A stretch of DNA of 64,000 nucleotides from Lytechinus pictus (lineage: Eukaryota). Position numbers and translations under genes: made by a program. This document shows positions 13,300 through 51,187 of the stretch, piece after piece. The stretch's first letter is position 1. Each line of letters starts with the position of its first letter. The DNA lies in NCBI RefSeq assembly GCF_037042905.1, contig NC_087245.1, positions 1,178,001 through 1,242,000 on the forward strand, written 5' to 3'. The notes under the pieces were generated by a model. That model searched no databases. It was given only the letters and a program-made list of their open reading frames with translations, and was not told where the DNA came from.

Positions 13300-16200
13300 C
13301 TATATGAAGGGAATATAAAAGGTTGTATGGTAAGTGTAGTAAACATGTTGAGATGGGTCCAGTAGCAGTAGTACAAAGCAAATATGTCCACCTTGCTAGG
13401 TGCTCAAGGCGCTCCTATATTACCCCGGCTAAGCTAGTCTACTGATTCTGGTGCGCACAGCTTTTTGAGGAATTACTTCCTGCCGGTACCCATTTACCTC
13501 ACCTGGGTTGAATGCAGCACAATGTGGGTGAAATTCGTGCTGAAGGAAAACACGCCATGGCTTGGAATCGAACCCACGTCCTTCAGATTGAAAGACGAGT
13601 CTTAAAGATAAATTCCAGTAGTTGCAGTAAACACTGATTTCATGATTTCTGTAAAACCAGGCTTAATTGTCAGTATATCATCGAGGATCTAGATCTGGTA
13701 CAGTTACATAAACTGAACTTTGTGAAATCTTGAAATCTACGCTGAAAAATGTTCAGACTGAACTTCCCCAACACAGATAAGCGCACGTGAGACTGTGTAT
13801 AATTATTGCTTTGAGCGTCGGGCCCGACGCTCTACCCGAATCCTGTGCTTATTTGCTGATTTCTCAGCAATTACACAATTTCTTCCAGAATCCTTTGGCA
13901 CATGCGTTTTATTTATACAAACAGACACTTTGGTGGTCATTTCATTGGATTCTGTACAAACTCATTTTGATATCGTTACCAAAACTAGCATTTACCTTTA
14001 ACCACTAGACCACGATGCCCCCACATAATAATGCTAGCCCTGTGATCCAAAGCGAATCGCATGAGGAATCTTGTACATGGTTATCACTGATAACTTTGCT
14101 CTTAGCCAATAAGAATTACACTACAAGACAATTCATGACACACTCCTCTCATGCTCATGAGTTTCCAAAATATTATGTTGACAGTCCAAATTACAGCTGG
14201 ACGAAAACGCTTAGAAAATCATTTATGCACAAAAGAATTCAAGTAGGTTACATTTTTCTTTGTGAAATTGTTTATAATCAGACACTTCAATTAATTGTTA
14301 AACATCATGTTACAGGAAATAGTAATAATCCAACTGAACAAGTTCAACAAATAGGCTCTAAAACATTTATGTATATTGGACAAAAAATTAAAAACATTCA
14401 CTTTGATGACCATAGTCTTTATACCTCAGTCACATTTGCTCTACGGCGGCCGTACGGCGAGTCGAAAACTGCCGTTTTATTCATTTTTTTTTTTTTACTA
14501 AGTCAATATAAAATTTACAAGTATTTATGAACAAATTAATTTGAGCATAAGAATATAGCTTACCTCCTAAACCAAGATGAAAGCCCACGGCACTGGGAGA
14601 TGGTGAAAAGTTCTTCATGTTGGCTCCAAGCTTGGCCCACTACAATAATACAAATAAAGAGACAAACAAAAAAAATATAGGTATACAGGGAGATACCAAA
14701 GAGTATGGTGTAACAACTGTATAACATGCCTGTCACAAATGAATCAAACAGATTTCACTTCAATTCAATATCCATCCTAATGTAACATTCATAGTTGCAG
14801 AGAAATATCAAAGTTTCTTTGCCTATTTTAGGTAGTTTTACAGATCATTAGTATTAATATCACTCCAAAATTGTTTTCATCAAGGTCTTAAGACTTTACC
14901 ACAGCTATACCAATTTAAAAAGACACCTGTTGCAAAAAGTCTGTAACCCCCTCCCATCTCCACCCACCCCCCCCCCCCCAAGAAAAAAAATGGTAGTGAT
15001 TAAAAGAAACTCATCATTGAAATGATACAGAGAAAAATTCATTATAACAGGCTAAAAAATAAAGATGGCTCGTGGGGCAAACCTAAAAGTGCATGAAAAA
15101 TGCATGATGGGCTTCTTACCAAGATGAAGAGAAGAACAAGAGGAGCCAATACAAGGGCTGTGAAGGCATTAGAGACAATAGATGGAGGGCGCTTCTCAGC
15201 TATACGAAACATATGCTCAATCTCAGGTAACTGTTTGTACTGGCTTCCAGACGGAGAAGATGGCTTGGCGTCAGACTCAGGAAATTTCAAAGACACTACG
15301 GCCTATGGTAAAAGATGAGAAAAAAAGATAATGTGTAATTGACCACTTCGTAGTTACTTCATGGACGATTTTGGTCAAATGACCTTTCATTTCCTTTATT
15401 ATGATAGGCAGATTTCAAAGCAAGATATTACTTAAGCATGCCTTACATAGCAGTATGAAGAAATTGAATAGACCAGGTGACTAGAATAGCACACCAATGA
15501 ACACTCTATGAAGGTATTGTTACATTTCTACATGAATGCAACTGTGAAAATACCAGTCTTTTGTGGACGCATTGTTGTTTTTTGTATATATAAATGAAAA
15601 ACAAATTGCAAAAGAATATATGAATAATCAAGACATCAAGGTTGGTGCTTATCTCATTAAATTTTAAACCACCATGTCACTTTAGTACAAATGACCTTTC
15701 TCTGATCATGCGCAGAGAGGAACTACGAACTGGCTTATTCAAATGAGTATTGAAGGATTCTAGCATTTGGAGCATCCAATCAAATATATTGAAAAAAATC
15801 ATTTCCAATCATATTTTATGTCCACAGTGAAAGGTGTTGTTCACCCTCATCCCCCCAAAAAAGAAGATAGGTCTAGAATTAAACAAGTTTAAAATAACAA
15901 CAACAAAACAAGACAAGTGGAATGCCTCTGGCGGTCTCACCTGCATCACGCGATTCAATGTAGCAGCAGTGCTGACTTTGAAAACTACTATAAAATAATT
16001 ATTCACAAAAAACGCCATTCATATTAATGATACAATACTACATTCATTGATGGTAATTCAACAAATACCCCCAACTTGGCCAAAGTTCATTGACCTTACA
16101 TGACCTTTGACCTTGATCATGTGACCTGAAACTCGCACAGGATGTTCAGTGACACTTGATTACTCTTATGTCCAAGTTTCATGAATCAGATCCATAAACT

Positions 16201-19200: not shown

Positions 19201-22200
19201 GTCTCTATGTATGTTTTTGCCTTTAACTCAATTTATATAGCTAGTAGAATGCTAATTTTTGGCAAACATAGATTTTTACATTTCTAACAAAAATCTACAA
19301 AAAATTGCTGAAAAATAATAAATTTCCTATGTATCTTATTGTTTCTTAAATTCTTATGTATTTCTTTGTTTTTTAAAACCTGTTTTTTATTGTTTTTTTC
19401 GATAAAATTTGTCGGGGACCTTTTGCAATCATAAATAACATAAAATAAATCCTTCTAAACCAACAAAAGTAAAAATAATCATACATTTATAATTTTTGGT
19501 TGAAAAACACAATTTGTATTGACTTTGTACACGTATTCACGTTTTTGAGCAATTTTGGGACCGACATGCGCTTACAAAATATCGCGTAATTTCGGAACCG
19601 CGTACCCGGGCGTTGTGAATTTGGTCTCAGAAGATGCGCAAGACTTGATAGTAAAAAGTCAGAAAGCGGCCCGGTAAAAAAAATTTGCACGGCGGCATAG
19701 CGGCGAAATTTGTCGCCCCAGTTTAATACGGGTTAAACTGTTTAATGACCATATCATTAGAATCCTTTTGGGCAATGACAATGACTTGCAATTGATCCAA
19801 TTAATTTCAACTATGTAAATACCTCAATGTGGAAATAGTTTATACAGGAAAGTACACTAAATCATCTTAGAAATAATGAGCACACTGATTTGTTCAACAA
19901 CGATGCATGCATGACTATACTTTATATTCATAAAGTACTTTGAATGGATATGCATTCTAGGTACTGGCATTACTGGATTTCCATAGTTGTGAATGATCAG
20001 AAAAATCAAAACTTTTTGTAAGGGTGGGCCCACATGACAGAATGAATATATCTTACGGGTCACTGGTGCCAGAAAGGGGAAGGTTGCTAGCAGCGGTGTC
20101 TCCCTCACTTTTAGATTCGACTGAAGTTGCAACAACAATCAGCTTTCCAAGGGTAGAGGAAAGAAGGTTGGATACTCGTACACGAATGCTAGGCTCTGCT
20201 GAGGTGACGGCCATGGGTCCAGCAAGGGAAAATGCTACTGGAATTTGGAACTGAAGAAGAGAGACACATTGTCATTTAGAAGTAAAATATGACAAACTAT
20301 AGAGGGGTAACTTCTCGGGACATACGGCATGCATAATCAAACAAAAGTCCATCCCGCAGAAATGTTGATTTGGATAAAAAGAGAAAATCGAACAAGCATC
20401 ATGCTGTAAATTTCATCAAAATAGAATGTAAAGTACAGACAAAAATTGTGCATTACACTCATGCACTACTTTCATTTCATTTTAATTTAGTTATTTAGTT
20501 CTGAAATAATCATACATGGTGAATATATTGTGTCAAAACAGAAATTGGCAGGTAACTGATGTCACTGTGTATCAGACTATCACTATTTTTTAATTTCTTC
20601 TCCATGCAAGCCAAACCTTGATTTACTAGAAAGCTAAACTCTCAGTAAGCATAAAATCACCTACGATCAATCACTAAGCTTCATATTAGGAGCCTAAAAT
20701 CAACTCACCTTGTTATCTGAGAGGGCTTTGGTCCCACTGAGGACGTAGTATGCATTACGGACGCTCTGTGTTGATTGTCTGCTAACAATGTAATTTCCTA
20801 ATAGCACTACTTGCTCCTAGAAATAAGGAAATAAAATCATTATCAGCAAGGTCATTTCAAGATGGCTAAAAATTTGGGATAATTGATATAAAAAAAATCA
20901 TAAAATCATTATAAGTAAAGTCATTTCAAGATTGGCTAAAAATTTGGGATAATTGATATAAAAAAACATTTAACAATGACAGAACAAAGAAGACACAAAG
21001 CATCTGCAATAATGAAAAACACAAATAATATTAAGTCTTAATAAAAAAAATAAAAAAACAGTTAAGACTGAGTCAGTTGTGATTGTTTGTACAAATACAA
21101 ATTCCTAAGGCAAACTTGCCTCATTTCCTGACAAGGATTATTACAGTAATACTTTGGCTATTTGCTAATTCCCTCTTTGAAAAGAAGGATCTACTTTAAA
21201 CAAAATGCTGTATTAAACATTCCCAATAATAGGATATTTAATGAGCAAAAATGGAAAACAGATCTTTGCTAAATCTGACTACAAATATAAAGTTTACCTC
21301 ACTAATAACTGGTGCTTTATTGACTACTCCAGAAAGTTTATATGCTCCTTCTATGAAAATAGATGTCTGCTGTAATGAGTCAAACTGAAAAGGAAAACAG
21401 AAACATAGAATATAATTAACATCACAATAATCATAACTAAATCCAACTTCAAAACATATTTACTGCACTAATGTTTATGCTTTAAATGTAGAGCTACAAA
21501 CTGACATTCAACAGTGTGGGTTAGGCTATCACCCCCCCCCCCTCCCCACCACCTTTGCTCTCCTATGTAAGTCAAAACTACCTAGGACAGAGCTATCTCT
21601 TCAAAATGTAGTATTATGATATATACTCACTACAAAGATTAATAATTTCTTTCTAGTCTTTACAACATTCACACAAAAAATACTTGCCAACAGATAAAAT
21701 GTTTCTGGGCATTCCCGTTTTTCAACAGAGGTCAAATGATCTTAATATCAAACCAAAATTAGCATTTCGTCTTGTTTGATGAGGGTATATGTACAGTCCG
21801 GCCTCTCTTACCCGGATCTCTCTATTATCGGGAAGCACACTTGCAAATTTTTTTTTTCTTCAATATAGTACGTATGGAAATGAGATTTCAATCTAAGATC
21901 TATAATTCCTATGCAAACTCACTTTGATTACATACATTTTCCAATATAATCTACCTACAACCATATTATTTTTTATGAAGACATCTTGAATAGGATAATT
22001 TTCCAGTAAATCAGGGCACAGCACAACCATTTTATCACGTTCTCTCTCTTTTTTTTTTTTTGGGGGGGGGGGGGAGAAACATCTCGCGTGCTCAGGCCTC
22101 TTGCATTACGGACAACGCCATCTATCATGTTATAGCCTACAGTCAATATAACAATGACCGTCTTTGAGAAGCTGCGATGATCCAATTTTTCAAAGTCAGT

Positions 22201-25200
22201 TTCATTGAGTCATTCTCGTTCTTTTGAGGTAAGCTTGATGTATTCCTCAATCATTTCAGCAGGTAAATTGTCCAAAAGATTTGGCAACCAATCGATTTCA
22301 TTTCCGTAAAAAAAAAATGCCTATGATTTGCACTGACAGCAGTGAAATACTGTCTGTGTGCGCCCACTACTATTACGTGTACCTACCGTTGGGGAGGCAG
22401 CTGCATGTATTTAAGATGGGGTCTCCCAGATCCAGATAAGGGATTTATTGGAGCTAGTTTCAACGTGTCCGGATAAGAGAGGTCGGACTGTATAAACAAA
22501 ATACCCCAATAGGCATATTGGAGGACATTAAACTGGATTCTAAGTTCAATGACTCTAGATCTCGTTAGTGTCCAACAATTTATCATTGAAAAAAAGTAAG
22601 AACAAGCAATTCTTACCTGTAAATATTTTTCTCCTACTTCATCAGCTTGTGCTACAATATCTTCTATAAGATCATGATATTTGTCTACATTGGTTTCATT
22701 TGATAGCATGGATGCCACATGGAGAGCAAGACTGGAACTGCAATAATAAATATATATTCAAAAGAGTTTAAAGAAAATGCCCACTGATAAATAATAATTC
22801 ACACAATACGAAATTGCAATGTAAGACTCTTAGGAGATTAAAAAGCAATATGAACCACGTAGGACCAACATCTCATTCAGAAGAGATGAAAGGATGAGAT
22901 GAATTACATATGATGTATATATGTACATAAGTTACCCCAAGAGACCCAAATACAAGTTACCTTAAAACACTGTCATCTTTCTTCAGTCCAGCATCCAAAG
23001 CCTTTACCACTTCAGCAGAATTAACTAGAGAGAGAAAGACACGAGAAGAAGTAAATGTAGCACTAAAAACAAAGTATTAAGCACTGCATAAATTGAATAT
23101 TATTGTTATCATTATTATGACATAATGATAGAATGACTAGAATGTCCAGAGAGTGAATTTGCCAAACCTTTGTGGACATCAGATTAACTTCTTACCAAAT
23201 CCATGGTGTTTCTAATTTATAGATATTTAATAATTTCCTCTAAGCACTTTATACATATGTGTGACATATTAAAATCAATTTTCATGCACATTTTTTGGTA
23301 TTTTGGAGGTGCTTTGCGAAAAAGTTATTGAGCCAAATCATAAATGGAGGTCAAGCTGTCTAGAATGGAATAAAGATGTGGGAAATAGAGGTAGGTGAAT
23401 AGTGGAGACCAGGATACAAGGATTCTGCATACTTACTGGTGAGGCCAAGAGCAGTCAAGGCTGTGACAGCATAGAAAACTGTTGCTACATCTGAGCTATC
23501 AGTAACAGCAGCATTCAAAACTTGCTGTCCATTGCTCAATGGCACCTACAAGCAAAGTAAAGAAACATTCATGTCTGGTGATATTGAACTACACTAAAAC
23601 AGCTGGTTCAACGAAACGACTCTACACACTCAAGAATGTTTCCCTAACAGTTGTAAATTAAGTAAATTAAACATTGTGCATTTAACATAAATTAGTGCAT
23701 CAGCTAAATCAGGGGCGGATCCTGGATTTTGCAAAAGGGGGGACATTTTTGTACAGGAAAAAAATTGACCAGCAAAAAAAAAGAAAAGACTTTCACTCCC
23801 AAATGGAGGTCATTTTGTTCCAGGAAAAATTTGACAAGCTACATCAATAAAAAGCAGAGACATGTGGAGAGCATATGACTGACATTTTCCAATGATTTAT
23901 TGCCATATGTAATTACCATGTCGACACAGTAAGATTGGCAATGGATATATCAACCAACAAACTGTACGCCTATTCCTATATGCCCACTTATAACTTTGTT
24001 CGACAGGGTATAATTATTTGCATGTTAAGATAAAAGTAATGCACATCTACATGTACAAGTACCTGGCTACACTAAAGTGATGCTCCGGGTTGAAAATATT
24101 TATAGTTAAATAGAGTGAAATTCACAGAGCAAATGCTATAAATTTCATCAAAATCGGATAACAAAGAACAAAGTTATCACATTTTAAAGATTTGCATTAT
24201 TCCGGTGAAACAGTTCTAGACATGTCTTCATGAATATTCATTTTATTAGGTGGGCTGATGTCACATCCCCACTTTCCCTTTTCTTATGTTATTACATGAA
24301 ATCATATCTGTTTCATATTTTCATAAATGTATAAATGATGTGTCTCCATTATTATTATTATGAAATAAGTTGCAGCAAGAAATAACTAATGCACTTAATC
24401 AGTTGCAGTCCTTCACGTTTATAATTTCGTGGAGCTCAATAAATCGCTCTCCTTATTTTTTTGAGGAGCTCAATTGAGCTCCTCAGAATCGCTCTCCGTG
24501 AGGAGCTCAAATCAATTCAATACAATACATGTATGATAAATTGTAGATTTTTCTTAACATTGTATATATGCAATAGCTGTGTTAGCTATTAATTAATCTG
24601 TGGTGAAACTAGGCCTGGGACTGGGTCACGTCAATACGTTTACAAGATGTCGTATGCGCTACTGCTAAAAAAAAAAAAAATTGAAAAAAAAATTGAAAAA
24701 ATAATTGAAAAAAAAATTGGAAAAATTTCACATTTTACATCTTTAAATCCATGAAATGGCCTTCTTTTGCCCTTGTTTTTTCCATAATTCCTCGAAATTA
24801 CTTTGATTTAGTTGAAAACTATCAGAAAAATGAAGAATATTCACCTCTTTCCCGACTCTGATTTGAACTTACCTCGGTAAATATTGTAGTCCCACATGTA
24901 GACTTCCATGGTGTTGCCATGAAAATCTACATATGGGACTACATGGGACTGCAATATTTACCGAGTTTAAATTAAAAATTTATTTTTTTATTTTTTTTTA
25001 AAACTATTTTAGGAGCGCGATTTTTTGCTCTCCTTATTTTTTTCAAGGAGCGCGGTAGGAGCGCCGGCGCGATCGCGCTCCTCAAAAATGAAGGTCTGCA
25101 GTTGTCAATCCAATTGTTTTAGTTCTTTGTAGGAAACTAACCTTGCAGTTGCCTAGTGCTTTGGCACCAGTAGTGGCATGGTAGATGGACTGGATACTGT

Positions 25201-27370
25201 TCACATCCAGGTGCTCTTTCAAAAAGTTGCAGGCCTCCTGGGGAAGGGGGGGGTCATGAGACAAAACAATGCAGTTAGAACTGTGGCAGCATCTCCGTGA
25301 TACATGTACATGAAGGAAGACATCTTACTGACTCACATCGTATGCTATTGGGACATATTTAATTGCTCAGCTTGTCAGTGTTATCCAAACAAAATTTGAA
25401 TGCAACACAGCAATCTACCTTGCCAATTTCCATGTGACAATGTCACACAAAAATGAGCAATGTGAGGCATTGCATACATGTATATTTATTCAGCAAAACC
25501 AATAAACTGATCTTACAGTCAGTAGGCAGGTCCCCAAAAAGTGGCTTCTTTCATCCGATTGATATTCATGACAAAGATAGGTTTTGCATATTTATTGAGC
25601 TTGATGCGGACCAAAACACCTCTTTTAATTCAGACATTGCTGCTCGAACATCAAATTTCATGATTTTGGTATCATTGTAAAAAAGAAGCATTCTTTTAGG
25701 TCATTTGTTTGAATTTATTTAACTCTTAACGTGCCATGAACACATATCTGTGCATCCACTGGAATGCCACGAACACATTTTCGTGCAATGGTCATACAGC
25801 TATTGTTATGCCGATTGCATTTTGTGGAGTACATTGCATGCATGAGTGATTCCATTGTTCAGTTCAGCTTATGGTCAAGAGGTTTAACATTACTGTCTCA
25901 GGAGTGATTCCCTCTAAAAAAAAACAATTAAATATAGACCCTTTGAAAATAAATGCCACTCGCTGATTACAGTGAATGGCACATTAAGAGATTTTGTAAT
26001 GTACAGTGTAGGTGAAACTTTTGATCTAAAATGTGCTTCAAAATAATTATTTTCACCTGACAAATATTGTTATTTTTACACTTTATTATTGTATAAGCCC
26101 AAATGATTTTTAAATCATGATAAAGCTGAATATCTATGTTTCAACTTGGTAAAGGTTTCAAATCAAGAATTTGTTTAATCAGGTCAAGATCACACTTTTC
26201 ATTGGCAAAGTGCATGTACATTAATCAAGCAGCTTGAAAACAAGAATACTGCATGTCAAAGAGACCACACACCCACGCAAATTCCAGCAGTTCCAGCGCT
26301 GAGTTAATGGCAAAGACTTACTCCCCATTTGTTGTTTTGAAGCCTTATCCAGCCAATCAGAACTCTAGAAGTCATGCTACTCCAATATTTTAGAAATCTC
26401 GCCTTGTACCTTGGTGAGAAAAGTGTGATCTTGACCCGATTAAAAGGTGCCGCATATTTAGAGTGACATTGTGAAAAAGTACAGAAATTCAGCTTTCTGG
26501 TGATATAGATACATGTATCTTCGAGGCTCAAAATAAAAAGTTTTGCACAAATTTGCAAAAGAAAACAGACGAAGAAAATTCAGCTTTGTACACATTTTCA
26601 GGCCTGAAATCCACTTATTTATCAAAATACTTTATCCAAAATAATCACTAATAGTAATGCAATATGAAAGAGAAACATTTACTCTGTCCAAATGTGCAAA
26701 GATGTTTAATTTGACTTGAAGATAAAGTAGGTAAATTCTTAGAGAAAGAAAGTCTCACGATTCACAAGATTTTGCAAGGAGGATTCAGCTACAAGAGGAT
26801 TTGGATGAATCTGACCCATTTGCTCATTAGCATAGGAGCCTGCGGTCTGACTTCTTAATGCAAATTTACACAAGTTCCTTCAAGTCACATATTCAAGCAG
26901 TTAATGCATAGGCAGGTCACCATCAGGACTGTTGTCATTCTTCTCGTCAAATTCCAATATTATTGGCTTTACACCAAACTACATGTATTTACATACTTCA
27001 ATAGCAGTAGTAACTTTACTTTGTGAATTATTCTTTAAAAGGGAGTATAAAAATCAACATTTATTATTAGTTACAGACCACTCTTACATAAATGTCTTTT
27101 CTAAAGCTTTGGGGGAAAAATGCAAAATATGAATTAAAAAAAAAAAATCCACTGTGAGCAAATGAAGACGACTTACCTGGGCCTGAGGGATAGGAGCATC
27201 AAGAAGCTTCAGCCCTAAGATAGCATAGTGGGCTGTGCTCAAATCAGCATAGGGCCTGGCCTGTTCAAAGATGGTCTTGAACCTGGCTTGGCTGTCCCCT
27301 GATAGGGTCGAGATAGGACTTAGGGCCTGTCCCACAACTGTGAAGACCAGGACTAGTAGAAATACCAAGC
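13163..27370 (-). CDS. RPN2: Ribophorin II (dolichyl-diphosphooligosaccharide-protein glycosyltransferase subunit 2), spliced; coding exons 2-15
   Basis: GT-AG exons 27370-27177, 25237-25142, 23545-23437, 23024-22961, 22737-22617, 21384-21298, 20816-20709, 20250-20057, 18506-18297, 17908-17797, 17046-16849, 15302-15120, 14639-14564, 13299-13163 join in phase (1889 nt plus 1 nt from exon 1, about 630 codons). Recognisable RPN2 motifs: signal peptide [57 protein letters not shown], and C-terminal TM segments WAKLGAN...FHLGLGGIF...YWTHLNMF. Confidence 0.95.
13386..14021 (-). mobile_element. tRNA-derived SINE split by a TTAA-inserting element
   Basis: Minus strand: ggggcatcgTGGTCTAGTGG (A box) ttaa [insert] gactcgtc...GGTTCGATTCC (B box)...cccaggtgaggtaaatgggtaccgg...ggagcgccttgagcacc (L2-like tail). 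Confidence 0.8.
13606..13997. mobile_element. Non-autonomous Kolobok-like DNA transposon
   Basis: TTAA at 13602-13605 and 13998-14001; imperfect TIRs agataaattccagt / actagcatttacct. Confidence 0.75.
14564..14639 (-). CDS. RPN2: RPN2 exon 14
   Basis: gtag|TGG GCC AAG...GGA G|gtaagc; 76 nt; WAKLGANMKNFSPSPSAVGFHLGLG. Confidence 0.93.
15120..15302 (-). CDS. RPN2: RPN2 exon 13 (TM1)
   Basis: catag|GCC GTA...ATC TTG|gtaaga; 183 nt; [36 protein letters not shown]. Confidence 0.94.
15342..15735. mobile_element. Small TIR element
   Basis: gaccacttcgtagtt / aactacgaactggc; caaatgacctttc near both ends. Confidence 0.6.
15905..16837. mobile_element. Helentron/DINE-1-like element with internal ~162-bp tandem repeats
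   Basis: Subterminal inverted repeats gtctcacctgcat (~15933) / atgtaggtgagac (~16820); terminal hairpin gtctcac...gtgagac next to an A-run; units with atgacctttgaccttg start near 16049, 16212, 16374 and ~16580. Confidence 0.75.
16849..17046 (-). CDS. RPN2: RPN2 exon 12
   Basis: ctcag|ACC TTT GTC...AAC TTG|gtatgt; 198 nt; TFVRITNVKTKQEVIFTAE...[16 protein letters not shown]. Confidence 0.94.
17797..17908 (-). CDS. RPN2: RPN2 exon 11
   Basis: gtag|G GTC AAG TAT CCT...CAT CAG|gtatga; 112 nt; VKYPEKVEKGLEADHHQNLVIKFSLKDKSGQPIEAHQ. Confidence 0.92.
18297..18506 (-). CDS. RPN2: RPN2 exon 10
   Basis: tttag|A GCT ATC...ATG AG|gtcagt; 210 nt; ...DTRLIG...VKVTTQV...VVDKDQSITAK. Confidence 0.92.
18740..19732. 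mobile_element. piggyBac-like MITE
   Basis: TTAA|ccctatcttaactagg ... cccagtttaatacggg|TTAA (18736-18739, 19733-19736). Confidence 0.78.
18974..19207. mobile_element. MITE nested in the piggyBac-like element
   Basis: TIRs tagggacagtgattttccgttt / aaacggaaaatcactgtctcta; tgtatg on both flanks; internal aaacggaa repeats. Confidence 0.78.
20057..20250 (-). CDS. RPN2: RPN2 exon 9
   Basis: ttcag|TTC CAA ATT CCA...GAC CC|gtaaga; 194 nt; FQIPVAFSLAGP...IRVRVSNLL. Confidence 0.9.
20709..20816 (-). CDS. RPN2: RPN2 exon 8
   Basis: ctag|GAG CAA...AAC AAG|gtgagt; 108 nt; EQVVLLGNYIVSRQSTQSVRNAYYVLSGTKALSDNK. Confidence 0.9.
20833..20968. repeat. ~68-bp tandem duplication next to the RPN2 exon 8 acceptor
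   Basis: aaaatcattat...gtcatttcaagat(t)ggctaaaaatttgggataattgatataaaaaaa occurs twice. Confidence 0.8.
21298..21384 (-). CDS. RPN2: RPN2 exon 7
   Basis: ttcag|TTT GAC...AGT GAG|gtaaac; 87 nt; FDSLQQTSIFIEGAYKLSGVVNKAPVISE. Confidence 0.9.
21794..22490. mobile_element. Tigger/pogo-like MITE
   Basis: TA|cagtccggcctctcttacccgga ... tccggataagagaggtcggactg|TA. Confidence 0.82.
22617..22737 (-). CDS. RPN2: RPN2 exon 6
   Basis: tgcag|T TCC AGT...TTA CAG|gtaaga; 121 nt; includes [17 protein letters not shown]. Confidence 0.92.
22961..23024 (-). CDS. RPN2: RPN2 exon 5
   Basis: ctctag|TT AAT TCT...TTA AG|gtaact; 64 nt; NSAEVVKALDAGLKKDDSVL. Confidence 0.88.
23437..23545 (-). CDS. RPN2: RPN2 exon 4
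   Basis: tag|GTG CCA...ACC A|gtaagt; 109 nt; VPLSNGQQVLNAAVTDSSDVATVFYAVTALTALGLT. Confidence 0.9.
24406..25098. mobile_element. MITE inserted in an older repeat; contains a further ~115-bp palindrome (24853-24965)
   Basis: TIRs cagtccttca / tgaaggtctg; cagttg duplicated at 24400-24405 and 25099-25104; subterminal ggagc/gctcc repeats. Confidence 0.7.
25142..25237 (-). CDS. RPN2: RPN2 exon 3
   Basis: cag|GAG GCC TGC...TGC AAG|gttagt; 96 nt; EACNFLKEHLDVNSIQSIYHATTGAKALGNCK. Confidence 0.9.
27177..27370 (-). CDS. RPN2: RPN2 exon 2 (signal peptide h-region, start of luminal domain)
   Basis: tttgtag|GC TTG GTA...GCC CAG|gtaagt; 194 nt; phase 1 to 0. Confidence 0.93.
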
Positions 27371-28416
27371 CTACAAAAAGGGGAGGGGATTAAATTTGGT
27401 TCATGTATGGTATGTTTTAAGAAAGCATATAGTTGATGCACAAATGTTTAATGTGATTCATTTTCTTACAATTTGCAGACCCAATCGATGGCCACACATG
27501 GAAAAATAACTTGACAGTTACAAAAGTTCTCATAATCTATCAAAACGTAAGATCACTGGAACACTGATGAACATGCGCTAATTGATTTATCATTGATTTG
27601 TTCAATGATTATGAGCGATTTTAAAATCAAACTAATGTCGTTTCAGCAAACGATAAATCTCCTAATGAAAATCTTTCAAATCAAGTTAAATTATCACCAT
27701 GTCATAACATAAACCCCCCCAAAAAACCTTGCATATCAGTGAAATCAAAGCTGAAAGTGATCAAACCGACGATCGGCATCTTAAACACACATCACATGAT
27801 AATTCGAACTGGATTGAAGAATGTCAGTAGGGTCTCAATTTATGGTGTTTTAAAATTGCATTCAGACCAAAGTCAAAGACTACAGATTATGTTCTTGACT
27901 TCACAGTAATAATAAAAAAGACTGAAACATTTTATTATTTTTGGTATTTCACTGTTGTCCCAAATGTGTAGGGTGGAAGAAAGGTCAAGATTCGGGGGGG
28001 GGGGGGGGGGCACTTCCATTGACGAATGGATACCAGGTCGATCATGGGGTCTCGAAAAGCACCCTAAACATGTATTTTCCATATTCTGAAAATGCACCCC
28101 TTAAGTACTGTATAACAAGTATTGGCATGTGAATCCTTACCCAAACAAGTATTGGAGACAAAATAGTACCCTTGACAAGTATTCCCTGAATTGACCCCCT
28201 TACACAAGTACAGCGAATTGATCACGAACGTCGGCTTTACATTTACCGTGTTCACTTACATTGGGTTTATTACCATCCGTCCAGTCCTCCCACACCTTGC
28301 TCAAATTGGACCCTAAACACGTGGTGTTGGGGCAAAAAGTAGGCCTTTATCCTGGCTTAAGATTTTTTTTTATAAAGCATCTTTTTTAATTATACCCTCG
28401 CAAATTGGACTGTAGG

Positions 28417-29428
28417 CAGTAGAGGCGCACGGCCAATATGGGAGACTCTCTCCAATAGGGGGGGACAATCTCCCACATTGGAGACTTGCTTTGCAAAAGG
28501 ACAAAATAAGCAACACCAACAAAAGTCAAAAGCATGATTTTTTCCACCCAAAATTTTGTCTCACTGAGGTCAGAAGCCCATTTGTTTTGTGTGTGATTGA
28601 CAACAAAATTCCTTATCAAAACAAAAGTAGACGGTGAATTTTTAAAGTAGACGGTGAACAGGGGTAATTTTTCATGAGGAATCTGCTTATCACATTTTTA
28701 TTTGCCGCCAAGGTAATCCTTTTGCAGCAAATGTAAACAAAGGAAATTGGTCTCCAAAACTGGAGACTGTCTCTGAAATTGGATACCCAAATTCTTTACA
28801 CAAGTCTCTGATACCCTTTTTACACACGCTAAAATTTCCTTAACCCCGTACTATAGGTGGGGCTAAATTGCCATTTAGCCCCACCTATAGTACGGGGTTA
28901 AGCTTAGCCCACTTTCTTTTTACACAGCATTTTTGCAAAGTGGGCTAACCCCACCTTTAGTACGGGATTATTTGGCCCTGCAAAAAAGCAGGGTTATCCC
29001 AGCAATTGCGGTGCTAAGAGCGATAGTACGGGGTTAAGATCGCTAGTGTAAAACGAAAGTGGGCTAAGCTTAACCCCGTACTATAGGTGGGGCTAAATGG
29101 CAATTTGGCCCCACCTATAGTACGGGGTTAAGGAAATTGTAGCGTGTGTAAAAAGGTACGAGTGAAGTACTTGTACTACGAATGATCGACAAAAACCACT
29201 AGTCCGGGGTTAGCGAGTTTCGTGTGTGAAAAGCAAGCATTCCTTATCCGGGGTTAGCAATAACAATTTGGCATGTGTAAAAAGGAAAAAAAAATAGTAC
29301 GGGGTTAAGGATAGTACGGGGTTAGCGATAGTCCGGGGCTAAGAAAATCCTGTGTAAAAAGGGTATGATATTGGAGATAATCTCCCACTATGGAGACAGT
29401 CTCCAATATTGGCCGTGCGCCTCTACTG
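28417..29428. mobile_element. MITE with ~30-bp TIRs
   Basis: cagtagaggcgcacggccaatatgggagac / gtctccaatattggccgtgcgcctctactg; gtagg duplicated at 28412-28416 and 29429-29433. Confidence 0.8.
28812..29365. mobile_element. PIF/Harbinger-like MITE with internal hairpins
   Basis: TIRs taccctttttacac / gtgtaaaaagggta; TGA duplicated on the flanks; repeated tagtacggggtta motif. Confidence 0.78.
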
Positions 29429-29570: not shown

Positions 29571-30681
29571 GGCGCTAGTGTAGTTTCGCACCTCCCCGTT
29601 TAATGGTTTTCAAACATGTACAATCTCACCCTAAATAATTCACAACCTAAAATACTTGCATCTGAGCCTCCAAAGTCCAGTAGAAGTTGAATATTTGCCG
29701 TTTTGACACTTTTTTACAAAGTTTTACACCCATTTCGGAATCACTCGGTCGCTTGATCAAGCTCAGCGCTGCACATAAGCAGTCGGTACGCGTACAGTAC
29801 GTACCACCTAGTGAAGTGCAAGAAGAGCGAGTTTTTCTATGGTATCTTCAAAAAGATTTTTTCCCCTCTTTCAGCTTGCACCAAGTATTACGGTAGTGGT
29901 TGTGCAGAGTGGTTGATGTTTGTTGTGTGAAGGTATGTGTGTGTGGTGTGCGTGTGTGTGATTTTTTTAATGAAATAAGAAATGTGAATACAGTTGAAAG
30001 TTCTCTGACCTAGAGTTCAAAACAAGGCTCTACATTATTATTTCTTATTTCATCGCTAAATCTACGTGTATTCACATTTTTCACATTTCTTATTTCATTC
30101 AAACAAGCACACACACGCACACCCCACACACACCTTCACACAACAAACATCAACCACTCTGCACAACCACTACCGTAATACTTGGTGCAAGCTGAAAGAG
30201 GGGAAAAAAATATTTTTGAAGATACCATAGAAAAACTCGCTCTTCTTGCACAACTGGGCGTTGTGGCGTGCGCCTGTAATCCAAGCTACGTGGGGAAGTT
30301 ACAAATTGATGCAGAGGTTCGAACCCTGGTCACGTCTTTCGGATGGTGACGTTAAAGGTCGGTCCCAGACGTAAATAATCATATCTCATTGATACACGTC
30401 TGACAAAACTCAAAATACACACACACTTCACTAGGTGGTACGTACTGTACGCGTACCGACTGCTTATGTGCAGCGCTGAGCTTGATCAAGCGACCGAGTG
30501 ATTCCGAAATACTCAAATAGGTGTAAAACTTTGAAAAAAAGTGTTAAAACGGCAAATATTCAACTTCTACTGGACTTTTTGGAGGCTCAGATGCAAGTAT
30601 TTTAGGTTGTGAATTATTTAGGGTGAGATTGTACATGTTTGAAAACCATTTAACGGGGAGGTGCGAAACTACACTAGCGCC
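29571..30681. mobile_element. Foldback/MITE with ~420-bp inverted arms and 8-bp TSD (Merlin- or MULE-like)
   Basis: Arms ggcgctagtgtagtttcgcacctcccc... and ...ggggaggtgcgaaactacactagcgcc; flanked by cttaaatc at 29563-29570 and 30682-30689. Confidence 0.88.
30252..30426 (+). mobile_element. SINE copy 1 with 7SL/Alu-domain-like head, Deu-like body, (CA)n tail
   Basis: actgggcgttgtggcgtgcgcctgtaatccaagctac...ggttcgaaccctgg...gtctttcggatggtgacgttaaaggtcggtcc...aaaatacacacacac; precisely interrupts one arm of a palindrome. Confidence 0.85.
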
Positions 30682-31500: not shown

Positions 31501-32328
31501 GTTTCCCTTTATTTTATAACATTTAAAATATGAGTAGGATTATAGTTAATGGGTAATTTTTTAATAAATGCTAAACAAATGAGGACAAAGCTTGCATTTT
31601 TCGAGTAATAATCACTAATATCATAAAAATACTTGGGTGCAGGACTTCTAACCTGTTTTTAACGCATTGTCGCCTATGAGGTCCATACATGTTAATGTTT
31701 GGACCTCATTGGTACTAGGAGTGCTTAATAAGCAGTCTACAGAATACACACAACTTGAGTTGGCCGGACTACGAGCTACGCTACGTGTCCACTGCAGCTG
31801 CCTGCGCTCGCCAGCGCCACCACCCGTGCCCCTTGGCTCTGCCGCTGTAAATCATACACGTGGCAACACTTCCTCACGTCACTCGCTCTCGCGTCCGACG
31901 TCCCGATATCTCTCGCACACAAATTAACTCGGCTCTGGGCAAAATACGCTCTAAAAACATATTAATTTTGAGATTTTCACAGCTGATTTCTCTCTCATAT
32001 TAAAACACAAGCAACCTGGAATCTATAATTATATTACGCAAATTAAAATAGGTGTGTAAAATTCTTATTAAGATAAAATCGAATATTTTAGGCAAACTTT
32101 ACCTCTCGCCATTTCGCCGCTCCTCTTGAACAAAATGTAAAGGTGCAATTTCTCAAAATGATCGATAGGGGACAGATGTCGAAATGACAGACCTGTAAAA
32201 TTCAAATATCTTGAGTGACAACAATATGCTCTTTTCGTAACAGTTATCGAGGGTAAACCTTTGTCTTTATTTATTTTCTTCACTGTTTTTATTTCTGTAT
32301 ATGTCATGTTTATTATGTATGCTTGTAA

Positions 32329-32520
32329 ACCAGGCGTTGTGGCGTGCGCCTGTAATCCAAGCTATGCGGGGAAGTTACAAATTGATGCAGAGGTTCGAGG
32401 TTCGAGCCCTGGTCACGTCTTTCGGTTGGTGACGTTAAAGGTCGTTCCCAGACGTAAATAATCATATCTGATTGATACACGTCTGACAAAACTCAAAATA
32501 CACACACACACATACACACA
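32329..32520 (+). mobile_element. SINE copy 2 (same family)
   Basis: accaggcgttgtggcgtgcgcctgtaatccaagctatgc...ggttcgagccctgg...(ca)n; near-identical to copies 1 and 3. Confidence 0.85.
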
Positions 32521-32559
32521 GGCCAATTGGCTTGAACGGGACAAACCTGTTAAATAAAT

Positions 32560-33280
32560 ATCTAAACAATTGATGCGAGCTGAAAATTTTTGATATTCTG
32601 ACCTCGAATTTTGAAAATCTATTTTAGGAATCAAGAATAGGATGGGTATCTCTATCTCATTTTATGCGAGCGCTAAGCGCGAGCAGAAATTTTTTAAACT
32701 TCCGACCCAAAACTGGACATTCTAAGCACTTTTTATAACCATGAAAAGGATGGGTATCTTTTCAGTGATGCGGCGCGAAGCGCGAGTTTAAAATTTTTGA
32801 TATTCAGACCCAAAACTGGACATTCTAAGCACATTTTGTAACCACGAATAAAACCGGTTTTTTAGGCAATTTATGCGAGCGCGAAGCGTAAACTGAAAAT
32901 CTTTGGACATTCTGACTGAAAATTTGAAAATTCTAACCACTATTGCTGATTATGAACAGGATGGGTATTTATTTAAACAATTGTGCGAGCGCGAACTGAA
33001 AAAAAAATTGATTTTCTAACCTAAAATTTTGACATTCTAAGCACTTTTGGTAATCATGAACAGGATAGTCATTTAACTATAATAAGCAAAACTGTACATT
33101 TTGAGCACTCTTTGTGACCATGAACAGTACGAGTATCAATGTTAACAATTGATGCGAGCGCGAAGAGCGAGATGAAAAGAATATATATATATATATATAT
33201 TCTGACCTAAAATATTTACTTTCTATGCACCTTTGGTAATCATAAACAGGATGGGCATCTAACTAAGCATTTGACTCGAG
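32560..33280 (+). repeat. ~80-bp degenerate tandem units carrying gcgagcgcgaagcgcgagc
   Basis: Motif recurs about every 80 bp with ...tttgacattctaagcacttt... spacers; same family at 52887-54112. Confidence 0.75.
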
Positions 33281-33289
33281 CAAACATGA

Positions 33290-34070
33290 GTTTGGCGCCC
33301 CATGTGAAACATGAATATGGCGCCCCTCCCTATACGTTGAACATCAAATTTGCGCCCCTTTGTCGAACATCGATTCGGCGCCCCCCTAGGGAGAACATCA
33401 ATTTGGCGCCCCTATGTCGAACGTCAATTCGTCACCCCTAATTAGTCGAACATGAATTCGGTCGAACATCAATTCGGCGCCCCTAATTAAAGCGCCCCCC
33501 CTCCCCTCGGTCGGACATAAAGTCGTTGCCCCTCTCCTACCATGTCGAAGATCAATAAATTCGGCGCCCCTATATCGTACACAAATTCGGTGCTCCTAGG
33601 ACGAACATCGTTTCGCCCCCCCCCCCCCAGGTTTAACATCAATTCGTCGCCACGCTATGTCGAACATCAATTCGGCGCCCTAGGTCATGTGGGTAAAAAT
33701 TCAACCCCCCACCTTTGGTTTAATTGAACATAAATTCGGAGCCCCTATGTCGAACATGAATTCGGCGCCCCGATGTCGAAAATCAATTCGGCTCCCCTAG
33801 GTAATACATGAATTCGACGCCCTCCCCTCTAGCTTCATCACCAATTCGGCGCCCTGCTATATCGAACATCAATTCGGCGTCCCGAGGTAAAACAAAGTCG
33901 GCACCCCCTAGCTTGAACATAAATCCGGCACTCCTAAGTAACACACTAATTCGGCACCCCGCTATATCAAACATCAAGTCGTCGCCCCCTATGTCGAACA
34001 TCAATTCGGCGCCCCTAGGTCGAACATCGATTCGGCGCCCCCTGGGTCGAACATCAGTTCGGCGCCTCCC
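33290..34070 (+). repeat. ~26-bp minisatellite (gtcgaacatcaattcggcgcccct)
   Basis: Many degenerate tandem copies; produces spurious ORFs 33783-34004 and 33808-34263. Confidence 0.85.
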
Positions 34071-38600: not shown

Positions 38601-41600
38601 CACATCATGATTATGTGAGACACAAAAGGGATACTCATTTTACTCCATTCCTTCTAACAGATGTGATTAATTTTATATAGAAAAGATTATCGTGGATATA
38701 GGCCTAATATACTGATCAGCACAGTCTTCATGGACTAAATAATATTTCACAAGAAAGGCTTTCAATCTTATCGATATTCACCATCATCGGATCATTAGTG
38801 GGTCAATTTATTTGGAAATGAGAGAGCAACCAAAGAGTAATTACTATACAATTTATTCTAAGTAAACAAAAATCGCCATCTTTTCAGAATCATCTGACTG
38901 ATGAATTATCATTTAGTCACGTGTTGACATTCCTTCCATTCGTTCGTACAGTATTATTGATTTGTCATGGCCCTGTGAAGCGGGGTGCTGAAGTACCCCA
39001 AGACTTTCCCTGGGCGTGCTGCGTGTATTATTCTCTGTAGGCATTAGGTGTAAAAAATGAAGAAATGTATATAAAATGACCTACATTTTGCAGTAACCCC
39101 CCTTTTTTTCTTGTCCAATTTCTGGGGACCAAAATAACCTTCATTTTGTAGAAAAACTGGAATTTTTCAAAGTTTTCAACATTTTGTTCACACAATGTTT
39201 TTGTTTCTTCAATTCAAGTAGCCTAAAATCGTCGTGACTTTTTGAGTAGAGCTTTTGTATTTTATTCAAATTACAGATGTTATCTGCAATTCTGCGGATT
39301 CGGCTACATCTAACACCTTTAACACATACAACGTTACTGTTCCTGGGACTGACAGCCCAATATTGATCTACGACCCCGCAGAATACGGTCCAAACATGAG
39401 GTTACCGGTTGGAACTACCGAGGTTACAGTGACCGCTTACATGACGTCATCGACTCCTATTGGAAACTGTACATTTAACATTACTGTTAGTTGTAAGTAA
39501 TATGAACTTTAGTCACATCTACGCCCTGGCCTATTTGGGCATATTTTTTTTTAGTATTAAACATCTTGACCATTAGATTTAGATTCAAGTAACTTTCCAT
39601 GCATGAAAGGCATACATTTTCTTAAAGCTGAGCGTGATGGGTACTTTCTAAGCATGCTAGGGAACTGACAAAATGGATGTTCCATCGAGTGAAGAAAAAC
39701 AATTTTTGCAGCTTTAGGATACGTTATGAAGTTTTGATAACAAATTTGTAGAACAGGTATGCTACATTTGCCATACAAACACAATAAATGTTCGCCCTCA
39801 TCACTTCTGGTATCTTGAATTACAACATAACGCTATTCAAAATCGTCCATATTTAGTCCTTGAATAATCAAAAGGCTTCAATACTCTTGACCAATGTATA
39901 TTTCATTTTATATACTTGATGAATATGACAGTGGATGAGCTTCCTATTGCTTGTCCTGCAACAAATGACATCGAGCAAACAGATCCAGGCGAATCAACTT
40001 TTCAGTTCCAGATCAACTCTCTAGACTCTCTTCCGGGATTTGACTACGCTTCAATTTCGCCAAATTTTGTACAAAAACAACCATCGACGAACACGAGCGG
40101 AGTGGTCAATGACCGTTTTCCTGTCGGCATCCATGCTGTCAGCTTACTCTTCTTCGATAATTACCTAACTAAACAGTGCAACTTTACTCTTATAGTCGTC
40201 GGTGAGTATTAAAATATATCTTTCCTTTTCTTTTCCCCTTTCTCACTTCCCCTTCCTTAGTACCATAATCGTTTGACTACTATCTTTCTATTCCACAACC
40301 CTTCTTGGAAAGCCACATCAAATTATTTCATCCATCTCCCTCTTCGATTTCTGAGAACTATCCATCAAAAGACTCGTTCCTCTCTCTTTCTATACCTGGA
40401 GAACCTTTGAGGGAAGGAGGAAGAAAAGAGCTGTATTCTAGATTAACAGTCTGTATAAGCGGGAGGGGAATAATATTAAAGAAATTCATCTAAAGATTTC
40501 CTCGTTGCTTCAGTCCAAGGAATCTTCATCATTCTTTCTTACCGTATTTCGCTACTTTAAAAAGACCTTTTTAGTGTTAGATACTAAAGTCCACGTTTCA
40601 CTAACACTACCAGGTCCTATATGAATCATTGTTCATAGGAATTTGCCTGATGCAGACTTAGCCATAGAAATCCTTCTCCTTCATATATCTTACCGTTCAT
40701 TAATTTTCTTTGACTAAAACCAGATGTAGAACCACCAACGGTCACTTGCCCAGACGATATCTTAGCTACCACCACGAACGTCATCACATACACACCTACA
40801 GGAATAACAGACAACGTTCCCGATCCCGATACTCTACATAGCTCCATCACCTTTAGTCCCGTCACTCTATCACCTGGCTCCCGATTCCCGATAGGGAATT
40901 CTACTGTTACTATTTCCGTTACCGATGGAGCAGGGAATCAGGGCGATTGCAGTTTCAACGTCAATGTAGCATGTGAGTGTCAAAGATCTGTCAAAGATCA
41001 GATATGTATTTTTTGAAGCATCTAAAGTGAATTGATATAGATAGTCAGTGGTGATAATGATTAAATATTCACTAAAAAGTATGTTTCCCCCTTCCAAATG
41101 GTTCATAATTTCTCAAATCCATTCTATACTACCGGTATAGACTTACATAAATTCCTCAATAATGTATAAGGCCTAAAGGATAATCCCAATCCCCATGTAC
41201 TGTTAACTGTTAACCAAAGGCTTTTGGCATTAGATAGTCCCACAAACTATTGAATAAAAAGAAATAATATTTCAACCAAAGTACTGAACAAACAAGAACC
41301 AGAACAAACGGGATTATTTTTTTTTTCAAGCTCATGATCAGCAACCAGGCATGTATCACACTTTCTTGCAGTTTGAAGAAACGTTTGATTTGGTTGCATG
41401 AACTGAACTGATTGATTTATATGGGAGTGGGGTGGCGACCCCAGACTCAACTTTAGTCTCAATTTTACATCCGTATTACAACTTCCAATGTATAGTTTGG
41501 TGTTAAAGTGTTTTTCTAAAGAAAAGTCTTTTCTTAAGAAAAGAAAATTTTCAGATACTAACTGATCTACAACTTTGTATTTCTCTGCTTGCTGCAGGTG

Positions 41601-44600
41601 TTTGAAATATAAATTCTATATCCATGTATATTTAGAAGTTCTTTAAGTGTTTTTCTAAACAGAAGTGTTCATCTTGAAACTTTGAAACTTTGAAAACTTG
41701 AAAATGAAACTTTACACAATATAGCTAATCTAAATCCTCGCCTTTCTTTGCCTACTGTGTGTAAAATACAAATAATTTATCAGTTATATTTAAAGTTCTT
41801 TAAAATTACTTTATGTTTTTCAGTACAAGAGCTACCAATCACCTGTCCTGCGCGATTGGATCTAACAGTGGAGACTGATCGTGGTCAACCTTACTTCACT
41901 TACCATGATCCATTATTCAACATCTCTTATTCTACAACCTATATACCATATGAGAATATTACCATGGTGAGAAATTACGGTGGAAGTGTGAACAGTCCTC
42001 AGCTGGCCATCTCAACTCAAGATCAATATGTCTTTCTTACGATATCAGACGGGATGTTGTCTAAGACTTGTATAGAAGCAAGTGTTCAAGTGGAAGGTAA
42101 CATTTCAAATAAAAAATGAATGAAAGTCGTACAAAAAAAAAGAAATCAGTCTAAGTATTGATTCCAAGAAGAAAATCAGCATAATAAATACAGGTATGTC
42201 TAAAAATGGATCGAAACAATAACAAGAAATCTAGGACCGTACTATAACATAGGCTTATTGGAAAAAAATCGGTGTATAAATTTTTTTATTTTCACAAGCA
42301 ATACGCATATCAATTACATTACTGCGTGATGTTTTTAATTTAGGTAAAAATGGATCGGTTGTAATGAGATTTCTCTGTTGCTTTCTTCCTAACAGATCGA
42401 GAACCTCCTGTGATCGTTTGCCCAGATGACATCTACCAAACTAACACTTCAATTGGTTCTAATTTCCAACCAACCTTTTTTGATAATTCCGGTAGTTCTT
42501 TAGATTCTGCGATCATTCCCTTACCACATGGAATATTTTCAGTAGGAACAACAAACTATACCTTTATTATATCCGATAGAAGTGGAAACAATGCGTCGTG
42601 TTCGTTCAACGTTACTGTCGAAATTGGTAAGAGTTTTTAGTTGCGTTTTTTTTTTTGGGGGGGGGAGCGGGGGGGGGGGGGTACTCATTCATTAGTATAG
42701 CAGTGTGTCCATTTAAAACAAAGGAAGATTCGTTTGAATAAATAATGTTTAGTCTATACTCCTCCTTATAACATTGGAAGAATACTTTTTAGACACTTTG
42801 ATCGTCACTATATATGCTATAGCAGTGGCGTGAAGATAGGGGAGGCTTGGAGCATTGGCCCCTAAAAAGTTTCACGACAACGAAAAAAAGGAGGGAGAAA
42901 AGGAAAGGGAAAAGGTGAAATGTGATATCATTAATTTTTCTGAAAAGTATGCCAAATATAATATAATATAGGGCTATCATGTTATGTATTCATTTTTCTT
43001 CTGTCAGACTCCTCTATTTGTCAAAAATATATTCACAAAGATTATGTTAATCAATTATCAGTGATAATTATTGTATTCGGCATTTCTGTTTCGAATCTTC
43101 ATGGATGAAATGAACACAAATTTCAAATATTTAAAAATAGGCCTACACTGTGAAAAAATATTGGGTAAAATTTAAACCAGCACAAAGGTAATTATGTGGC
43201 CAGCCAATTTGGGGCAGTATTTTACCCAATGCGGGAAGCATGCAGTAAGGTTAAAAAATAAGCAGCAATTACTTTAGAATGGGCAAAATTTTCATCACAC
43301 TGGAATGCCCAAAAGAAATGTCCAATGTTGGTTGAACACATAATTACCCCCATAGAGCATTTTCACCCAATATTTTTTTTTAGAGTGTATAAATATATAT
43401 ATTTTTTCTCTTCCTTTATAGTCCCGGAATCAACGACTGCCTCAACTGAAGGTAAGGAACTTTCTTGCATTATGAATTTTAATTAACATCACAAACATCA
43501 TTATTTATAAGAATTCATGATCAGACGAATACATTTTGTTATATTGATTTTTGATGTCAAATTTTGTATTGTAACAAAATAAATGAACATCAAGAATATA
43601 TGTAAGCAAATCACACTAATTTCATTTCATTTGTGTTTCTCATTTTATTAAAAATTCAAATTAAGGTGGAGTAGATTGTAATAAAAAGTCAGCTCTGAGT
43701 GCATGTTTTGTAAGATTTATGACAGGAAAACGAAGTAAAATTTTATGAGATCGAGTCGTCACTCAGGAACTCAAATGTTATAGTCAAGTGCTTGGATTAT
43801 GGAGGTTGCATGATATATTTAGTTTCGTTTGGGTCCATCCAAACACACGTCTATTATTGATCACTGAAAACATTCCTTGTACATCTTGTCTAGAAATACT
43901 GTATTTTTTGTTTATGTAAATGTTTTAAGGAGTTGGAAAGTTAAGTTTAATCTATTCAAGCCAATCGATTTCTACTTTATGATTTTTTTAACACAAACGG
44001 AACAATGTAAAAGAACTTTCTTTGCACGGTATATCATTAATGATTTATTTGCACCGGGACGAAGAACGCTTTCATGAACATATATAATGTATTGAAAATG
44101 CAGTTCAAATGACAATGAACAGTAAGAAGATCTTTGTAGAAAATTGATAAACCGGAACAGCAGTTTTGTTCTAAGTTTCGGAGCTGCAGAAAAATTGCAA
44201 ATATGTCGTTTGTCCAGAGTTTAGGAGGAAAATGCTGTTTTGATTTACCGATTTTCGACAAAGACTTTTATGGTTGATCTTTGTCATGAAGGGTTCTGTG
44301 TCCTTGTGCGAAAAATCCCTAGGTGCATGAAATAATTATGTACCATTTTCCACTTGGGGATATCAAACAGTGTCCTATCATTTTAATTTGTAATCATTGG
44401 TGTTTTCATTTAGATATATATTTATTTATTCGTTTATTTATTCATTTATTTTACTGCAAATTACAATAATGTTATTAATAATGTATTCAGTGATAAAATA
44501 TGTCTATCATTCTGACAACATGCTATAATCACTTTCATTATGCCAGTATAATCGGTTTTCATCGTTAACAGGGTTAACGAAAAAAATAGCTGTCATCTTA

Positions 44601-51015: not shown

Positions 51016-51187
51016 TGGGCGTTGTGGCGTGCGCCTGTAATCCAAGCTGTGGGGAAGTTACAAATTGATGCAGAGGATCGAGGTTCGAGCCCTGGTCACG
51101 TCTTTCGGATGGTGACGTTAAAGGTCGGTCCCAGACGTAAATAATCATATCTGATTGATACACGTCTGACAAAACTCAAATACACAC
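51016..51187 (+). mobile_element. SINE copy 3 (same family)
   Basis: tgggcgttgtggcgtgcgcctgtaatccaagctg...gaggatcgaggttcgagccctgg...aaatacacac. Confidence 0.85.

Follow-up and report, generated by a model that had tools for sequence, protein, structure and literature searches.

The three SINE copies described here (c1, c2, and c3) are members of a real, young, and chimeric 7SL-headed family in a sea urchin. They lie in a stretch of 64 kb of Lytechinus pictus DNA that was analyzed in full (hereafter, the window). We consider it probable that they represent a young family of non-autonomous retroposons in which a piece of 7SL RNA has been placed on an older SINE, with transcription by Pol III and mobilization by a stringent-type LINE. 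The original prediction concerned positions 32395-32520, which correspond to the 3' two-thirds of c2; the element itself starts upstream of this range, at 32329, and is about 175 nt long. Its parts, and the other features discussed below, are listed in Table 1.

Table 1. Coordinates of the SINE copies, the parts of c2, and the element that hosts c1 (positions in the window)
Feature	Position	Strand	Basis or remark
SINE copy c1	30252..30426	+	sits in right arm of foldback element
SINE copy c2, full length	32329..32520	+	93-96% identical to c1/c3
7SL (SRP RNA) 5' Alu-domain head, including A-box position	32329..32376	+	Rfam RF00017
Linker, probably anticodon/variable-loop side of parent tRNA-like head	32377..32398	+	copy alignment, shuffle tests
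Pol III B box, tRNA T-loop type	32399..32409	+	in register with sister-element B boxes
Deu/Nin domain 5' stub, about 38 nt	32412..32449	+	published Deu alignments, L002/L003 alignment
3' stem-loop, candidate LINE-recognition element	32449..32485	+	fold z-scores
A-rich spacer and (CA)n tail	32486..32520	+	sequence; (CA)n itself 32500-32520
SINE copy c3, with 2-nt head deletion and short (CA)n tail	51016..51187	+	BLASTN/nhmmer
Foldback (MITE-like) element hosting c1	29571..30681	.	left arm keeps empty site, mirror position 29816-29818

Searching the 64-kb window with positions 32325-32540 (BLASTN and nhmmer) recovered c1 and c3 with E values of 1e-72 and 1.6e-76, giving a family of three copies in the window, all on the + strand and with pairwise identities of 93-96%. 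A 19-nt core motif matches three times in the window, compared with a mean of 0.00 in 100 shuffles. The copies measure 170-190 nt, are dispersed, and vary in tail length; their borders are sharp, with similarity ceasing at the element ends in 3/3 copies and unrelated flanks beyond. In the terms of SINEBase (PMC3531059), they constitute a short (<1 kb), interspersed, non-tandem repeat. The B-box fit, the Deu-like stretch, and the (CA)n tail without poly(A) that had been predicted are all found on the + strand of c2. The body string quoted with them is that of c1 and c3, from which c2 deviates at 32426 and 32445. Within c2, a 7-nt unit is repeated in tandem at 32390-32403, with its first unit inside the linker, and c1 has one such unit only.

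A single empty site demonstrates that the family has been mobile. The foldback element that hosts c1 consists of long inverted arms (94.6% and 85% identical) around a short central spacer, and when its left arm is read backwards, the site of c1 is found empty. The insertion amounts to 172 nt plus a 3-nt duplication (30249-30251 and 30424-30426), and the insert ends in (CA)n, so that both the empty site and the repeat tail that SINEBase associates with retroposition (PMC3531059) are present at this one locus. The 3 nt are equally readable as tail: because they equal the tail repeat, a duplication and priming by tail-target pairing are indistinguishable here, and the duplication length rests on one site. 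No duplication adjoins the ends of c2 or c3.

The surroundings contain several other repeats. Adjoining the foldback element is a second palindromic element (28815-29156) with an internal 64-nt palindrome, placed within an inverted pair (28417-28473 / 29373-29428). An interspersed repeat of about 1.5 kb occurs at 7506-9414 and 57922-59474 with 82% identity; the former copy has an extra segment of ~330 nt and 28-nt inverted ends (7501-7528 / 9386-9413), which suggest a DNA transposon. Degenerate minisatellites, some of them partly inverted, are found at 32575-33273, 33283-34066, 16048-16772, 1-1707, and 51661-52566, with periods of about 103, 26, 162/192, 189, and 195 nt, respectively. The 103-nt minisatellite begins about 55 nt past c2 and recurs at 53300-53429.

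The identity of the head comes from an Rfam search of 32200-32700, which gave a match to Metazoa_SRP (RF00017) at 24.2 bits, with an E value of 2.2e-4 over 4227 families. This is far beneath the gathering score of that family (70), and the window yields no Rfam match at gathering score and no tRNA gene by ARAGORN. The SRP match opens at model position 1, which is the exact 5' end of the element. Counted by hand, 36 of the first 45 positions are identical to the SRP model (with three inserted bases), followed by 3 of 18; over the 63 positions together there are 39 identities (62%), the last 18 positions being at chance level. When c1 is compared by eye with the hagfish SINE1 consensus, 28 of the first 30 nt are identical. 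Against these metazoan and hagfish references, the family carries the 7SL-derived 5' head by which SINE1 is defined (Kojima 2020). Judged by these alignments, the SRP-like likeness is limited to ~48 nt of the 7SL 5' end, with the junction placed against a metazoan consensus only.

This 48-nt likeness is shorter than SINEBase specifies (a minimum of 60 nt with 60% or higher identity to tRNA, 5S, or 7SL; PMC3531059). The described SINE1 lineages keep both 7SL ends around a central deletion, that is, a whole Alu domain, and such an arrangement was not found in the sea-urchin element. No 7SL 3' strand is kept, because the stretch that Rfam put on the 3' end of the model is the Deu stub, which is common to elements without 7SL. 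The predicted two-hairpin fold of the head does not exceed shuffled sequences in stability (z 0.27 and -0.77).

The chimeric build is best appreciated from related elements under other heads. A pattern fitting both the SINE body and the Deu motif has five matches in a metagenome collection (L001-L005) and none in viral and prokaryotic contig collections. Three of the five (L001, L004, and L005) carry the SINE body and tail, with 71, 77, and 79 of 81 aligned bases the same as in c3; L005 has a 9-nt insertion relative to the c3 body and tail, and its tail ends in (CAAC)n. The heads of these three sister elements are unlike those of the window copies and have no SRP match in Rfam. The claim of a chimera is thereby supported, since the same body and tail stand behind unrelated heads, and the ~50-nt 3' part that the original prediction called unique is common to all of these differently headed elements. 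A B-box-like word begins exactly 19 nt before the common body anchor in 6/6 sequences (c1-c3, L001, L004, and L005). As this register is constant while the heads differ, B box, body, and tail move as one unit; the proposal of an acquired B box is supported, with the B box having come along with the body. In the described SINE1 lineages the B box is inside the 7SL-derived part, and that of c2 is instead in the register of the sister elements.

As an observation in its own right, the body and tail of the sister elements (L001:692-781, L004:679-791, and L005:264-357) are 86-96% identical on three unrelated metagenome contigs, under three heads and with (CA)n or (CAAC)n ends. From its sequence, this looks like a conserved marine-invertebrate SINE module.

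The sister heads appear tRNA-like and presumably are of tRNA origin. All three have the B box, and in 1/3 a pattern search also picked out an A-box-like word; an Rfam test gave no tRNA match for any of them. When the linker and T-arm of c3 were aligned to the L005 head, 0/2000 shuffles were as good; for the linker alone the figure was 37/2000, a weak result from a comparison picked after inspection. The corresponding values were 8/2000 and 1027/2000 for the L004 head, and the linker plus T-arm gave 816/2000 for the L001 head. No tRNA-headed form of the SINE was found in the 64-kb window, the sister elements being known from metagenome contigs only. We infer the direction of the swap (a 7SL piece onto an older SINE) because the 7SL-headed form still has a T-arm of tRNA type. 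Either template switching or DNA recombination would yield this product, and Kojima names both for the hagfish case (PMC7245038).

Downstream of the B box, the body of c1 and c3 agrees with AmnSINE1 in 28 of 37 columns and that of c2 in 26 of 37 (by eye; Kojima 2020, Fig. S4), so that the 5' motif by which DeuSINEs are recognized is present. Bivalve Deu-type consensus sequences start the domain with the same few bases as this stretch. The remaining two matches to the pattern, L002 and L003, run on into full Deu sequence. L002:841-955 (-) is a 5S rRNA-headed Deu copy of SINE3-like type (34.8 bits, E 1.6e-4), and L003 is a related Deu fragment. With model R1, L003 ranks first among the sequences outside the building set of the model, but with an E value of 0.17. 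Aligned to L002 and L003, the stub was equaled by 0/2000 shuffles, a result that is not independent because both loci were fetched by a pattern holding the motif. By contrast with this 5' part, comparison of the element 3' part with the distal Deu sequence of L002 and L003 was matched by 1875 and 1659 of 2000 shuffles, respectively. The Deu claim of the original prediction is therefore retained for about 38 nt of the domain 5' end, with the 28/37 agreement to AmnSINE1, and dropped for the rest of the domain, which is undetectable. Published lengths are 330 bp for the vertebrate Deu domain, ~120 bp for Nin, and 70 bp for BivaDeu (PMC4824008), and a stub of about 38 nt lies outside this range of 70-330 nt. 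On the alignments, then, the stretch should be called a Deu/Nin 5' stub rather than a Deu domain. Inv/alpha, a domain that overlaps the Nin 5' end (PMC4758252) and has been recorded in echinoderms (PMC5804259, Table 1), may be its counterpart, a relation drawn from published descriptions.

The stub is followed by a stretch that folds as a two-stem hairpin, with z scores of -2.74 in c2 (1/200 shuffles as stable), -2.51 in c3, and -2.85 in L004; all three sequences folded were more stable than 195-199 of 200 shuffles. Across the 22 pairs and six sequences there are 0 compensatory changes, and covariation is lacking in the body and tail because the sequences are too alike. No LINE or other sequence sharing the SINE tail was found in the 64-kb window, the best score of 39.5 falling within the 35-44.5 obtained with 20 shuffled tails. 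The window does hold decayed LINE reverse-transcriptase fragments at 3748-4392 (-) and 62568-62945 (-) (Pfam RVT_1, E 2.3e-4 and 1.3e-9), which look CR1/L2-like by eye. Neither has a tail match to the SINE, and neither was accepted as a demonstrated partner LINE. The tail pattern has no match in the prokaryotic contig collection, and its single match in the viral collection (L006) lies within a phage-like gene and was dismissed as a 20-nt coincidence. Within the searched supplements of PMC5804259, PMC4824008, and PMC4758252, the tail words were not found.

Published target duplications measure 1-8 bp for ZfL2-1 (L2 clade), ~12 for Nimb, and ~15 for L1 (PMC4245944), and ~17 bp for the RTE-driven hagfish SINE1 (PMC7245038). 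A stem-loop is a feature of stringent-type LINE/SINE pairs, and three sea-urchin SINE rows in the table of Ohshima 2013 name CR1/L2 partners (PMC3747384). A partner LINE of the CR1/L2 group is fairly likely on indirect grounds: there is no poly(A), a stem-loop is present, the 3-nt duplication at the one insertion site is close to those of ZfL2-1 and unlike those of Nimb, L1, or the hagfish RTE pair, and the sea-urchin SINEs of that table have CR1/L2 partners.

Taken as a mechanism, these parts would work together as follows. The first ~48 nt of 7SL RNA would have taken the place of the 5' half of a tRNA-like head that belonged to an older SINE, contributing an A box and a small Alu fold able to bind SRP9/14; the older SINE would have contributed the B box, the 38-nt Deu/Nin stub, the 3' stem-loop, and the (CA)n tail. 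Pol III would initiate where the 7SL piece begins, on a promoter made up of the A box of 7SL and, about 60-67 nt downstream, the tRNA-type B box, and the transcript would run into a flanking T run. Transcription by Pol III is thus a presumption with which the A- and B-box-like words and the lack of an internal T4 are compatible: the longest T run in c1, c2, and c3 is at most 3, and the first T4 runs are 33-150 nt downstream of the copies (at 32587 for c2). Among the 24 sequencing runs listed in a word search with the sequence, none has as many as half of the words and none is an RNA run. A stringent-type LINE reverse transcriptase, most likely of the CR1/L2 group, would recognize the stem-loop and repeat, and the (CA)n tail would pair with the nicked target and prime copying. 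Binding of SRP9/14 by the head, if it occurs, may raise efficiency by bringing the RNA to ribosomes.

Several other readings deserve consideration, two of which accept the chimera and differ in its details. It is conceivable, and in our judgment improbable, that the 7SL share is longer, with the segment up to the B box being diverged 7SL (~50-80, as in Alu) and the crossover at or just after the B box. An 8-nt word in c3 (51073-51080) does also occur, by eye, in the 7SL-derived consensus of hagfish (about position 53-60), and c1 and c2 match it at 7/8; however, relative to the hagfish head its register is off by about 8 nt, agreement with the SRP model past position 45 is limited to 3 of 18 positions, the B box lines up without gaps with those of all three sister elements, and the linker weakly resembles the L005 head (37/2000 shuffles, chosen after inspection). 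The other reading keeps the same chimera and gives it a partner LINE of the I/Nimb/Jockey or RTE group instead of CR1/L2, which we regard as a minority possibility to be taken seriously. The tail, an A-rich spacer followed by (CA)n, speaks for it, as do the (CAAC)n end of L005, the similar C/A repeats that end mollusc SINEs with Deu/Nin bodies, and the hagfish SINE1, which uses RTE and an (AAC)n tail. Against these stand the single measured duplication, 3 nt long where Nimb makes ~12 and the RTE pair of hagfish ~17, and the inspection of the element, on which no bipartite RTE-type segment was recognized.

The remaining readings would deny the 7SL origin or the retroposition, and both are very remote. 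The head could be a diverged tRNA or another G+C-rich 5' sequence that resembles an Alu domain by chance, or the DNA could be vertebrate contamination. The match is indeed short and under the Rfam gathering score, and the fold is unexceptional; set against this, the E value is 2.2e-4 across 4227 families, the match runs from model position 1 at the element 5' end, and 28 of 30 nt agree with the hagfish 7SL-derived head, whereas contamination conflicts with the location of the copies, in sea-urchin DNA close to RPN2 and within a foldback element of the host. A shade more remote still is that one 7SL/SINE chimeric retrocopy was spread passively, by segmental duplication or in DNA transposons. 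The position of c1 within a foldback element and the small number of copies examined (n=3) would suit such a history, but similarity ends at the element borders in 3/3 copies, the mirror arm is without the insert, and tail lengths differ.

With respect to the genes of the window, ribophorin II (RPN2) is encoded at 13166-27404 (-) in about 14 coding exons. One exon is 96% identical to a Strongylocentrotus purpuratus protein, and tblastn with RPN2 proteins gave 100% identity in 7/13 and 5/15 aligned pieces for two proteins labelled Lytechinus and in 1/15 for that of S. purpuratus, which places the host among the sea urchins, probably in Lytechinus. A second gene is represented by HYR-domain exons at 39246-42637 (+).

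As for novelty, Kojima 2020 presented the hagfish family as the first evident SINE1 outside Euarchontoglires (PMC7245038), and an account from 2024 gives primates, rodents, and hagfish as the only hosts of 7SL-derived SINEs (PMC10886601). As of February 2026, such SINEs were placed in supraprimates, hagfish, and shrew moles, with no other cases known and with independent origins called extremely rare, in the passages of PMC13023118 cited here. Among the literature to 2026, as far as its accessible text goes, no report of an echinoderm 7SL-derived SINE was found; Repbase and Dfam are outside this scope, and a database entry is possible. With an echinoderm among their hosts, 7SL SINEs would gain one more origin and a new build. 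We offer more tentatively, and with slightly less than even confidence, the fuller proposal that this is the first invertebrate 7SL-derived SINE, that it is a natural 46-nt minimal Alu domain grafted as a ribosome-targeting module onto a stringent CR1/L2-dependent SINE that supplied the missing B box, and that the graft drove the recent expansion. If true, the Alu domain would help retroposition even where neither the L1/poly(A) system nor the 7SL 3' strand is involved. Earlier cases, in which both 7SL ends are kept, were interpreted to mean that the Alu fold is needed whole (PMC7245038). Since the same body and tail exist under other heads, the effect of the 7SL head is directly testable with natural matched pairs.

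Placed among known systems, the sea-urchin SINE falls within the broad SINE1 definition and outside the narrower ones (both 7SL ends, own B box, the 60 nt of SINEBase, and the Deu length). Closest in build is SINE1-1_EBu of the hagfish Eptatretus burgeri (PMC7245038), which likewise joins a 7SL head to the 3' portion of a tRNA-derived SINE that predates it, and has a non-L1 partner (in the sea urchin, a likely one), a microsatellite tail, and a young family. The hagfish element retains 7SL 1-96, including the B box of 7SL, together with the 7SL 3' end, has dropped the tRNA part, and has a bipartite RTE tail and duplications of ~17 bp; in the sea-urchin SINE, 7SL amounts to ~48 nt with nothing of its 3' end, the B box is of tRNA type, a Deu stub is present, and the host is an invertebrate. 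The supraprimate Alu, FLAM, B1, and Tu and the shrew-mole Urop (PMC13023118) also start with the 7SL 5' Alu domain, but they are made of the two ends of 7SL with ~183 nt deleted between them, have poly(A), and use L1.

The 5S-headed DeuSINEs (SINE3 and AmnSINE1, PMC4758252, with L002 and L003) are similar in that another Pol III RNA was fused before a tRNA-headed Deu SINE and in the same first ~38 nt of the Deu domain, whereas theirs is a 5S rRNA head with a full Deu domain of 130-330 nt and a CR1-type tail. The presence of the Deu 5' part only is shared with Nin-DC (~120 bp), BivaDeu-SINE1 (70 bp), Inv/alpha, and SINE2-3_SP (PMC4824008, PMC4758252, PMC5804259). These short invertebrate derivatives are all tRNA-headed as described in those sources, and Inv/alpha and SINE2-3_SP (of sea urchin) are compared here by description only; the stub of ~38 nt is below the 70-bp minimum given in PMC4824008.

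Finally, Moldovan and colleagues reported SRP9/14 binding, and support for one round of retrotransposition, by the 5' 46 nt of Alu or 7SL; in their cell assays the 3' part is required solely for its B box, which the 46-nt domain lacks (PMC11760393). Their engineered SA46/AY46, with a 46-nt minimal Alu domain, has nearly the same 7SL stretch as the sea-urchin SINE and likewise a B box from outside, and differs in being artificial, poly(A)-tailed, L1-driven, and assayed in human cells. As the sea-urchin SINE keeps about the 46-nt piece and takes its B box from elsewhere, it fits the view that the 5' 46 nt are sufficient, and not the earlier one of a whole Alu fold.
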